From contig NC_091470.1 in NCBI RefSeq assembly GCF_036971445.1, positions 180,172,001 through 180,236,000 on the forward strand: a DNA stretch of 64,000 nt. Direction: 5' to 3'. This DNA is from Narcine bancroftii (lineage: Eukaryota). Shown here one piece after another: positions 8,580-11,967 of this stretch. Numbering within the stretch: the first letter of the stretch is position 1; every line of letters starts with the position of its first letter. The translations under genes and the position numbers were made by a program. The notes under the pieces were generated by a model, which was not told where the DNA came from, searched no databases, and worked only from the letters and a program-made list of their open reading frames with translations.

Positions 8580-8833
8580 GGCACTTCCGGATAGAAAACG
8601 GCGCCAATTTCTCCTGGGGCGCTATTCGCGAGCGGCCAATCCGGCCAGAACCGGCCGATCACGCGAGCGACCTCGACCCGGACGATGGGGATGGGGATGG
8701 GGATGGGGGGGGGGGGGGGGAGAGAGAGAGAGAGAGAGAGAGAGAGAGAGAGAGAGAGAGAGCACTCTGACAGCGAGCCAATAGGCAGCGAGCGCCGGCT
8801 GATCCCTGATTAGCATACGGGCAGGCATATAAA
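8580..8833 (+). promoter_or_regulatory. H2B promoter
   Basis: CCAAT at 8604, 8636, 8778; octamer variant ATTAGCAT at 8809-8816 (canonical H2B ATTTGCAT); TATAAA at 8828-8833; CTTCCGG ETS-like site at ~8584. Confidence 0.8.
8684..8762 (+). repeat. Compound microsatellite (GATGGG)4-G16-(AG)21
   Basis: Read directly; lies between CCAAT boxes of the H2B promoter. Confidence 0.95.
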
Positions 8834-8860
8834 GGCGAGCCGACGGGACAGTCAGCAAAG

Positions 8861-9244
8861 ATGCCCGAGAGCGCGGCGAAGAGGATCACCAAGAAAGGGG
8901 TGAAGAAGGCGGCGTCCAAGGTGCCCTCGCAGGGGGAAAAGAAATGGCGGCGGCGGCGGGGCCGGCGGGAGAGCTACGGTATCTACGTGTACAAAGTGCT
9001 GAAGCAGGTGCACCCGGACACGGGCATTTCGTCTAAGGCCATGAGCATCATGAATTCCTTCGTCAACGACGTCTTTGACCGCATCGCTTGCGAGGCGTCG
9101 CGTCTGGCCCAGTACAGCCGGCGGCATACGCTGTCGTCGCGGGAGATCCAGACGGCCGTGCGGCTGCTGGTGCCCGGGGAGCTGGCTAAGCACGCTGTGT
9201 CCGAGGGCACCAAGGCGGTCACCAAGTACACCAGCTCCAAGTGA
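8861..9244 (+). CDS. H2B: Histone H2B, divergent variant (intronless)
   Basis: 127-aa ORF with H2B fold ([20 protein letters not shown]...[17 protein letters not shown]), promoter elements and 3' stem-loop. Confidence 0.97.
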
Positions 9245-9288
9245 AGGGTCCCATCCAGCCCCCAGCTCCTTCCTACTCGCTGTACAAC

Positions 9289-9329
9289 GGCTCTTTTCAG
9301 GGCCAACTCCACATGCTCAGCTCGGAGCT
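9289..9329 (+). promoter_or_regulatory. Histone 3' stem-loop and weak downstream element (H2B)
   Basis: GGCTCTTTTCAGGGCC at 9289-9304 (one G.U pair); CGGAGCT ~18 nt downstream. Confidence 0.85.
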
Positions 9330-10099
9330 TGGCTCCCTTTCCCCACCCCCCTGTCCCTGTATCGCTACTGGGTAAGAACCATAAGACGTCCAGTCGCCTC
9401 CATGATGTCTGGGTCAGACCATTTGCTCCTGCTTTAAATCTGGATCAACTAATTTGCATGTAATTAACGTGCACAGCCCAGACTTTAAATGCCAGCACTT
9501 TATACACCACCCCCTCATTTCAGGGCACCATAAAGTGGGCTTCACAGGGGGTGGTGAAGGGTTCACTCATGTCACATGAATGTTCTTTAACTTTGGTCCA
9601 CCCTGAGGCTGCCTCTTGGTCCAGCACCCCTCATGGAACCCTACAGCACCAGGCAGTCTCCCCTCCAAGTACTGACCAGTCCTGAGCCTGAGATCAGATT
9701 ATTGTGAACATAATTGCTTCCATAGATAAGAGAGCGGGTCTGGCTTCGAAGCTTTTGATCACCTTTGTAGTTGCCATTTTTCAACATGACCAGGGTTGTG
9801 CCGATGAACGTCCAAGAAGGCATTAGGGGGCCGGAAAAAACAAGTAGGAGACACCATCCATCAGTTTGGATCATTGTTAAGAACGAATGGCTCAGTAATT
9901 ACAAAGGGACCAATATTCAACTTTTGGTGGCAGAAGAATTCTCCTCATGAATTCTAACAGATCAGAAACACTCTTCAGGAGGCAAGTGTGACTACTAATG
10001 CCTGCAGAAGACATCAAATTTAAAACTGGAGCACAGGGGGAAATAAAGGGGGGGGGATGTCTTTTTTCCAAACATTATGGAGGGAGGGCACTGTGGAAG

Positions 10100-11160
10100 C
10101 AGAACTAGGCCATTTGGCCCATTTAGTCTGCCCTGCATTAAATCATGAGCAGATTTAATTCCCTAATCAACCCCTCTCTCTGGCCTTCTCCCCATAACCT
10201 TTGATGCCCTGGCTAAACAAGAACACATCAATCTCTGCCTTAAATACGCCCAATGACCCGGCCTCCACAACCGCTTGAGGCAACAAATCACACAGATTCA
10301 CTGCCCTCTGGCTGAAGAAATTCCTCTGTTCTAAGTGGACTCCCTTCACTCCTGAAGTTGTGCCCTCTTGACTTAGACTCTCCCACCATGGGAAGCAACC
10401 TATTCTGTCCACGCCTTTCAACGTTTGAAATGTTTCAATGAGAATTCCCCCTCATTCTCCTAAATTCCAGTGAGTCCAGGCCAAGGGCCGTCAAATGCTC
10501 CTCATACAATAACCCTTTCATTCCCGGAATCCTCCTTGTGAACCTCCTCTGAACCCTCTCCAACATCAGCTCATCCTTTCTTAAACAAGGAGCCCAGAAC
10601 TGATCCTAATTCTCCACGTGAGGTCTCCCCAGGACCTTGTAAAGCCTCAACATCACATCCCTGCTCTTAGATTCTATTCCTCTTGAAATGAACACCAAAT
10701 TTGCATTTGCCTTCTTCACCACCGACCCAACCTGCAAGTTCACCTTCAGGGTATAAGAGCAGGGATGTGATGATGAGGCTTAAGAAGGCCTCACTCGGAG
10801 AACAGGGTACAGTTTTGGGCTCCTCATTTAAGAAAGGATGTGCTGGTGTTGGAGAGGGTTCAAAGAATGATTCCTGGGATAAAAGGATTAGAATATGAGG
10901 AACATTTGATGGCTCTTGCACTGTACTCCTTGATTTTGAGATGGGAGGGAGACCTCATAGGAGTGTTTTGAATGTTGAAAGGTGTGGACCGTAGATGGAG
11001 AAAGGAGTGGAGGGTAAGAGGGCTAAACATCAGGATTTAAAACAGATGTGGAGGGATCAGCAGGGAAAAGAATCTCAGGGTTTTAAGTGGTTATGTTTGT
11101 ACTCTGACAATAAATCTATATCCAACTCGACGGGCCAAATGGCCTACATCTACTCCTATG
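10100..11160. mobile_element. Two oppositely oriented CR1 3' fragments between H2B and H3
   Basis: RNFFSQRAVNL and GVFKAEID on minus (~10100-10750); decayed CR1 on plus (~10750-11160). Confidence 0.75.
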
Positions 11161-11249
11161 TCTTATAGACTCGGTGCCTTTGGCAGAAAGAAAGTCAATG
11201 CAGAAATGAGCGGGAAACAAAAGCAATGAATTCCTGCGCGGGAATGAAA

Positions 11250-11440
11250 AGCCCGCCAATGAGAGTGCGGAAAAAAGAAGCAATCAGCGCGGGCTGGTGC
11301 GCAGTGGGCTCGCGGAGCAAGCAGCTAATCGGCGGCGGGACGTCGGAGGTTGTCCGCGTGCAGGCAGTGAGCACGTGGAGGGGCGCGGCTTCTGGGCGGA
11401 CCAATGGGAGGGCACCGCGGCGGGGGCGGGCTTTAAAAGG
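11250..11440 (+). promoter_or_regulatory. H3 promoter
   Basis: CCAAT at 11256 and 11401, GC box GGGGCGGG ~11422, TATA-like TTTAAAA at 11432-11438. Confidence 0.75.
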
Positions 11441-11485
11441 GCGAGGCGGCGGCTGCGGCTCCCCACACGGAGCGGCAGAGGAAGG

Positions 11486-11896
11486 ATGGCGAGGACCAAG
11501 CAGACGGCGCGCAAGTCGACGGGCGGCAAGGCGCCCCGCAAGCAGCTGGCGACCAAGGCGGCCCGCAAGAGCGCCCCGGCCACGGGCGGCGTGAAGAAGC
11601 CGCACCGCTACCGGCCGGGCACGGTGGCGCTGAGGGAGATCCGGCGCTACCAGAAATCCACCGAGCTGCTCATCCGCAAGATGCCCTTCCAGCGGCTCGT
11701 CCGCGAGGTTGCGCAGGACTTCAAGACGGACCTGCGCTTCCAAAGCTCGGCCGTCATGGCCCTGCAGGAGGCCAGCGAGGCCTATGTGGTGGGGCTGTTC
11801 GAGGACACCAACCTGTGCGCCATCCACGCCAAGCGGGTCACAGTTATGCCCAAGGATGTGCACTTGGCCCGGCGCATCCGCGGTGAGCGCGCCTGA
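11486..11896 (+). CDS. H3: Histone H3, H3.2-type backbone with six histone-fold substitutions (intronless)
   Basis: 136-aa [11 protein letters not shown]...RRIRGERA; A31 and S87-A-V-M90 (replication-dependent type); S96. Confidence 0.97.
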
Positions 11897-11926
11897 GACT
11901 GACCCCGCAACCCATCCGCACCCAAA

Positions 11927-11967
11927 GGCTCTTTTCAGAGCCACTGACCTTGCCTGCGAAGGAGCTG
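11927..11967 (+). promoter_or_regulatory. Histone 3' stem-loop and downstream element (H3)
   Basis: AAA-GGCTCTTTTCAGAGCC-AC at 11927-11942; GAAGGAGCTG at 11958-11967. Confidence 0.92.

Follow-up and report, generated by a model that had tools for sequence, protein, structure and literature searches.

A histone H2B gene located in a 64,000-nucleotide stretch of the Narcine bancroftii genome (hereafter, the window) represents, as judged by sequence comparison, an old and distinct variant lineage which is conserved in sharks and batoids and carries fixed changes in the histone fold. The lineage is real and apparently undescribed, whereas the type of arrangement is familiar: small outlying clusters of variant stem-loop histone genes are on record, as in the case of eutherian HIST3 (PMC9526256 and PMC13396413, in the parts available). 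Full-text and name searches, covering mainly open-access papers, returned no published description of a shark-and-ray H2B variant or of the locus, and the orthologues bear generic automatic labels in the databases, i.e., 'H2B 7-like' and 'late H2B.L4-like'.

The H2B gene (8861–9244, plus strand) is a continuous, intronless open reading frame of 127 amino acids and is followed, after a gap of 2241 bp, by a co-oriented, intronless H3 gene of 136 amino acids (11486–11896, plus strand). These frames bear out the preliminary description of two co-oriented histone genes about 2.2 kb apart, and likewise its statement that both are divergent, since the H2B and the H3 each differ from canonical histones in the alignment. 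The observed/expected CpG ratio was 0.95–1.10 over both genes and their promoters versus 0.24 in the spacer, about 0.8 kb of which is made up of dispersed repeat (fragments at 10098–10891 resembling other sites of the window at 67–78%). Poly(A) hexamers are present at 10042 and 11109 and were given no weight as evidence.

Pfam histone families were matched by two of 576 stop-free frames, corresponding to the H2B and H3 genes, in a scan with a minimum frame length of 50 amino acids in 1–17 kb and 56 amino acids beyond 17 kb; out of 675 frames, 21 of low complexity were set aside, as were those of 50–55 amino acids located past 17 kb. When the window was queried with a full H4 and with an H2A tail, no further histone emerged; H1 and full-length H2A were searched through Pfam only. 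In the 8.6 kb left flank, no histone remnant was found by Pfam frames, by the H4 and H2A-tail queries or in the read-through frames of 7101–8602. The absence of H2A, H4 and H1 genes nearby, as initially claimed, was thus confirmed inside the 64-kb window; the pair is an 'orphan' within these limits, which on the left extend over 8.6 kb. Nor did the window show the numerous, nearly identical genes for every histone type expected of a main array: there are two histone frames in 64 kb, with a left flank of 8.6 kb. The window contains no tRNA genes. To the right, the pair is followed by a C-type lectin gene with multiple domains, which lies on the minus strand and has models ending at 14515; a nested position of the H2B–H3 pair among lectin coding exons was considered and rejected, because two lectin gene models stop at that position.

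With fused and duplicated entries left aside, the proteins nearest to the window H2B were seven elasmobranch H2Bs (P0025, P0027, P0030, P0033, P0035, P0036 and P0037; 81–87% BLAST identity, 206–220 bits), whereas the next H2Bs of ordinary length scored 198 bits or less, a ranking that points to an elasmobranch source of the DNA. The seven orthologues, each from a different species, belong to two sharks (Heptranchias and Scyliorhinus) and five batoids (Hypanus, Mobula, Rhinoraja, Leucoraja and Amblyraja), and the clusters behind P0025 and P0027 hold 6 and 9 members, respectively, which may stem from other species or be paralogues. In a full-length tree of 44 chosen rows, the eight H2Bs formed a clade with a support of 98/94. 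On the core alone (29 rows), the same clade was supported at 87/92, which lies below the strong threshold of the tool and comes from a bootstrap that had not settled. Two Pristiophorus proteins, P0049 and P0053, were sister to the clade in the full-length tree (95/92). Because the clade includes two sharks along with five batoids, the H2B lineage is at least as old as the shark–batoid split, which is placed very roughly 250–300 million years ago. Variant-specific degenerate patterns gave no matches in metagenome contigs, as expected for shark DNA.

The changes shared by the clade, in mature human numbering, are I69V, G75C, N84S/T, K85R/G, S87H, I89M/L and L102V. All seven signature sites were present in 7/7 orthologues and no more than four in each of the 192 other H2B matches listed, the sites having been picked on the same sequences as were counted. 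In particular, among these 192 listed matches, C75 was found in three, V102 in a single one and H87 in 40. At position 84, five of the seven orthologues have Ser and two have Thr. Identity of the orthologues to the window H2B was 92–98% in the core and 56–61% in the tail, and this conserved core with a diverged tail is, at the level of the sequences compared, the pattern of purifying selection.

The 90%-identity cluster of the window H2B consists of one member. Furthermore, in all five species with both kinds listed, variant and canonical-type H2Bs are on records that differ in length (Heptranchias, 21.1 versus 6.1/12.4 Mb; Rhinoraja, 41.5 versus 19.8; Mobula, 210 versus 225; Leucoraja, 0.11 versus 12.4; Amblyraja, 0.96 versus 13.4), which lends weak support to a single outlying H2B gene and remains compatible with canonical genes on the same chromosome. 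The escape from homogenisation that had been proposed for both genes is supported for H2B, by its distinct shark and batoid clade and its one-member cluster, while for H3 constrained divergence is suggested.

With regard to regulatory signals, the CpG island of H2B contains in its distal portion (8580–8680, plus strand) an ETS-like site (ACTTCCGG, 8583), an E2F-like site (8601) and a pair of CCAAT boxes (8604 and 8636) with a spacing of 32 bp. A tract composed of (GATGGG)n, a G run and a (GA)21 microsatellite (8684–8762) interrupts the promoter and separates the ETS-like site and the paired CCAAT boxes from its proximal part. This distal segment could be a relic of a bidirectional H2A–H2B promoter or the point at which a transcript running leftward begins; upstream of H2B, beside 8580–8680, no trace of an H2A was found. 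The proximal H2B promoter (8778–8833, plus strand) shows the expected order of CCAAT (8778), octamer (8809) and TATAAA (8828), and the octamer, ATTAGCAT, has one mismatch with respect to the canonical ATTTGCAT (available text of PMC5706932). The H3 promoter (11256–11438, plus strand) comprises CCAAT boxes at 11256 and 11401, GC boxes at 11394 and 11424 and a non-consensus TATA-like TTTAAAA at 11432, where no consensus TATA is present.

The 64-kb sequence contains two exact matches to the histone stem-loop consensus, one lying 44 nt past the H2B stop and the other 30 nt past the H3 stop; the mean expected by chance was 0.12, and 2 of 100 shuffles reached two matches. The H2B stem-loop (9289–9304, plus strand) has one G-U pair and is followed about 19 nt further by a weak GGAGCT purine element. 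The 3′ region of H3 (11927–11966, plus strand) harbours a canonical stem-loop (11927–11942) and the purine-rich downstream element AAGGAGCT at 11959. Against the Rfam Histone3 family, which has a gathering score of 34, the H3 element reached 31.5 bits and the H2B element 17.9 bits, and Rfam yielded no match at gathering level over the window. Both genes thus have the features of replication-dependent-type histone genes, namely intronless frames and a 3′ stem-loop with a purine element, which are weaker for H2B and sub-gathering in Rfam for both. The promoters and 3′ signals had been described as intact; the elements appear to be present, but they are partly non-consensus, which applies to the octamer and stem-loop of H2B and to the TATA-like element of H3.

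The product of the second gene is an H3.2 with six changes in the fold (L65M, I74V, L100V, I119V, I124V and Q125H) and an unchanged tail. All six changes have BLOSUM62 scores of at least 0 (chance of 0.011–0.026 if the gene is mutated by single bases), and residues 1–64 are free of changes (chance of about 0.02). The conservative changes and the intact tail fit, and suggest, purifying selection, a pattern compatible with adaptive divergence as well as with relaxed drift. None of the 120 listed H3 matches carries L65M, I74V, L100V or I119V, and I124V and Q125H occur together in one unnamed match among them. The search for H3 homologues, in a database clustered at 90%, retrieved canonical and fused H3 only, and the missing orthologue is uninformative, because a variant with 96% identity would be concealed inside canonical 90% clusters. 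H3.3 is marked by S31, A87, I89, G90 and introns; the window H3 is identical to H3.2 at the diagnostic sites, and membership in H3.3 was rejected.

Among the known histone systems, eutherian HIST3 (H3-4, that is, H3.4/H3t, with H2AC25 and H2BC26) resembles the window locus in being a small intronless stem-loop group away from the main arrays and in having an H3.2-derived H3 variant. According to the accessible parts of PMC13396413 and PMC9526256, H3-4 diverged under constraint, the former describing the split of HIST3/H3-4 off the large cluster. In contrast to HIST3, which is described there as eutherian, the window locus lacks an H2A, shows no TRIM11/TRIM17/RNF187 flank and has the C-type lectin gene as its right neighbour. 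The window H3 has A24 and S96, as does H3.2, whereas H3.4 has V24 and C96, and all six of its changes are in the fold, with none in the tail. Membership in H3.4/HIST3 was therefore rejected for want of V24, of an H2A and of a TRIM flank, the left flank visible being 8.6 kb.

The testis variant H2B.1 (TH2B/TSH2B) shares with the window H2B a canonical-type tail start and a stem-loop 3′ end (PMC3976059 and PMC8857922, in part), Ser at the Asn84 position and, in the alignment, S60 and S90. However, H2B.1 arose in mammals and is reported to be arranged head-to-head with TH2A (title of PMC8685415), whereas upstream of the window H2B neither an H2A nor a remnant of one on a bidirectional promoter was found; the window H2B adds G75C, S87H, I89M/L and L102V. 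Lacking an H2A partner, it is not a member of H2B.1. H2B.K (H2BK1) is an oocyte variant of bony vertebrates, the human form of which likewise carries, within the L2 region, V69, C75, Q82, S84 and L89 (PMC8857922). The likeness to human H2B.K looks convergent, because the fish and coelacanth H2B.K sequences in the accessible part of that source lack C75 and S84. H2B.K has, furthermore, an intron in all orthologues described, in most cases a poly(A) signal, and also V94 (REVQ) and a tail of non-canonical type, whereas the window H2B is intronless, carries a stem-loop at its 3′ end and has an MPE..KKG.KKA tail and I94, and H2B.K membership was rejected on these grounds.

A comparison by eye with an unnamed 'Elephant Shark_H2B' (PMC8857922, Supplementary Data S3) revealed C75, V69 and D71, as in the window H2B, and C75 is also found in the Pristiophorus H2B 3-like and 5-like proteins P0049 and P0053; unlike the window clade, the elephant shark and Pristiophorus H2Bs lack L102V and I89M/L. 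The elephant shark sequence is neither named nor discussed as a variant in the available text of PMC8857922. Its sharing of V69, D71 and C75 hints at a deeper origin of the H2B lineage, and a second chondrichthyan C75 lineage (P0049, P0053 and elephant shark), sister to the window clade, is possible. The Squalomix preprint (bioRxiv 10.1101/2025.06.08.657570), in its accessible part, mentions only large canonical histone clusters.

The explanation we favour, although we hold it to be slightly short of an even chance, is that of a small outlying locus of replication-dependent type, which would have arisen independently, would be HIST3/H3.4- and H2B.1-like, and probably germline-active, and would give rise to mildly destabilised nucleosomes. 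A two-gene H2B–H3 module is plausible from the sequence. Separation from the main arrays would have freed both genes from homogenisation, as with eutherian HIST3. Transcription and stem-loop/U7/SLBP-type processing would occur in specialised cells that proliferate, with germ cells or the early embryo as the likeliest setting, and germline activity is considered probable purely by analogy with H2B.1, H2B.K and H3.4. The two proteins would enter chromatin apart, H2B with H2A and H3 with H4, and their linkage would provide shared regulation at most, with no physical H2B–H3 pair. In H2B, the loss of Asn84 would slightly loosen the contact with H4, as in testis H2B.1/TSH2B; in H3, the smaller core side chains would do so too, and these looser H4 contacts would mildly destabilise the nucleosomes. 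The loss of Asn84 would be the best-grounded step of this mechanism by analogy with TSH2B, in which Ser85, replacing Asn84, abolishes a water-mediated bond to H4 Arg78 (PMC3976059, available part). Position 124 of H3 lies in a hydrophobic cluster with H4, where Met is stabilising, and H3.3 I124T caused no measurable nucleosome destabilisation in the assays covered by the available part of PMC8855299. The H3 part of the mechanism is weakened, because Thr at this position did not measurably destabilise. A role of H3 L65 in contacting DNA was also considered and was dropped, as a literature search gave no usable support for it.

It is possible, though we would not expect it, that the conserved variant is the H2B only and that its neighbour is an H3 copy which drifted in this lineage under ordinary structural constraint, linked to it by history alone and with no joint role. 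The lack of an H3 orthologue among the listed matches would agree with this reading, but is uninformative in a database clustered at 90%. Relaxed constraint also yields conservative changes, Val is the outcome of four of the six H3 changes (in three cases replacing Ile), dispersed repeat makes up part of the spacer, and I124T was neutral in vitro (PMC8855299, in part). Against a drifted copy, however, the H3 gene retains a CpG island, a complete tail and, at its 3′ end, the canonical stem-loop with its downstream element.

A more far-reaching version of the favoured outlying locus, which we regard as rather doubtful, would have cartilaginous fishes independently evolving a two-gene germline locus, in which a shark-ray-old H2B and a co-conserved, co-expressed H3 would both loosen H4 contacts without an H2A or H4 partner, as a counterpart of H2B.1 and H3.4 in one cassette. 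The H2B of such a cassette would perhaps be shared with chimaeras through the C75 lineage.

We consider it unlikely that the two genes mark the right-hand end of a more extensive cluster of mixed histone genes continuing leftward, which would be compatible with a true H2B variant (cf. H2B.1 in HIST1). The visible left flank amounts to only 8.6 kb, and rays have large H1/H2A/H2B/H3 clusters (bioRxiv 10.1101/2025.06.08.657570, accessible part), but the stingray cluster is described as co-occurring with tRNAs, which the window lacks. Furthermore, the left flank is free of histone remnants, the H2B has no sibling at 90% identity, and its orthologues lie on records differing in length from the canonical-type ones.

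Very improbable, in turn, is a dedicated cassette, both products of which would be built jointly into one special nucleosome containing the two variants. H2B and H3 form no dimer with each other, being deposited as H2A–H2B and H3–H4 units, and they use different chaperones; moreover, a variant H2A or H4 is absent from the window. What speaks for joint assembly is the co-orientation, the 2.2 kb spacing and the intactness of both genes, together with several changes in both proteins that plausibly face H4 (among them N84 and I124, according to the available parts of PMC3976059 and PMC8855299). The 'dedicated variant-nucleosome cassette' of the preliminary description is not supported, in view of the lack of H2B–H3 dimerisation, the roughly 0.8 kb of repeat in the spacer and the outlying variant stem-loop clusters already known. 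Finally, that both genes are recent, decaying pseudogene copies is barely credible and largely refuted for H2B: although promoter and 3′ elements are non-consensus, both frames are open, H2B orthologues with a conserved core exist in seven species, the H3 changes are all conservative, and CpG observed/expected ratios are near 1.

The vertebrate H2B variants known so far are mammalian, except for the H2B.K of bony vertebrates (PMC8857922, available text). To these, the stem-loop H2B variant conserved in sharks and rays adds a class belonging to the sister lineage. The repeated loss of Asn84, as in testis H2B.1, makes it possible to test directly whether a weaker H2B–H4 contact is a point of convergence among germline H2B variants. 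If the H3 were co-conserved, the locus would be an independent replay of the HIST3/H3.4 route, in which variants arise on leaving the main cluster.

Several other features were recorded in the window. The lectin gene (14515–36155, minus strand; models P0356 and P0335) contains multiple CTLDs, with exons near 36.0, 34.5, 31.1, 29.7, 28.0, 26.4, 20.4 and 15.0 kb. An open CTLD frame at 32134–32466 is skipped by both models, yet contained in homologues. A broken CTLD exon with a stop and a frameshift and its partial, 96%-identical duplicate are found at 21614–21960 and 25199–25405 (minus strand), and a further CTLD fragment is located near 30030–30210. A lectin intron harbours a largely open LINE ORF2 (17393–19995, plus strand) with endonuclease and reverse transcriptase domains, presumably CR1-like. 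An 18-bp GC-rich tandem repeat (50705–52123) comprises 79 copies at 100% identity, with open frames on both strands, and two arrays of 17-bp units, 99% identical within each, are present at 58986–59137 (9 copies) and 60667–61438 (45 copies). Between the latter, a frame at 60199–60636 (minus strand) resembles by eye a LINE ORF1 fragment, with no Pfam support. Lastly, the segment 42500–43000, which is GC-rich and CpG-rich (observed/expected ratio of 0.8) and lies beside a long purine-rich repeat, is a possible promoter.
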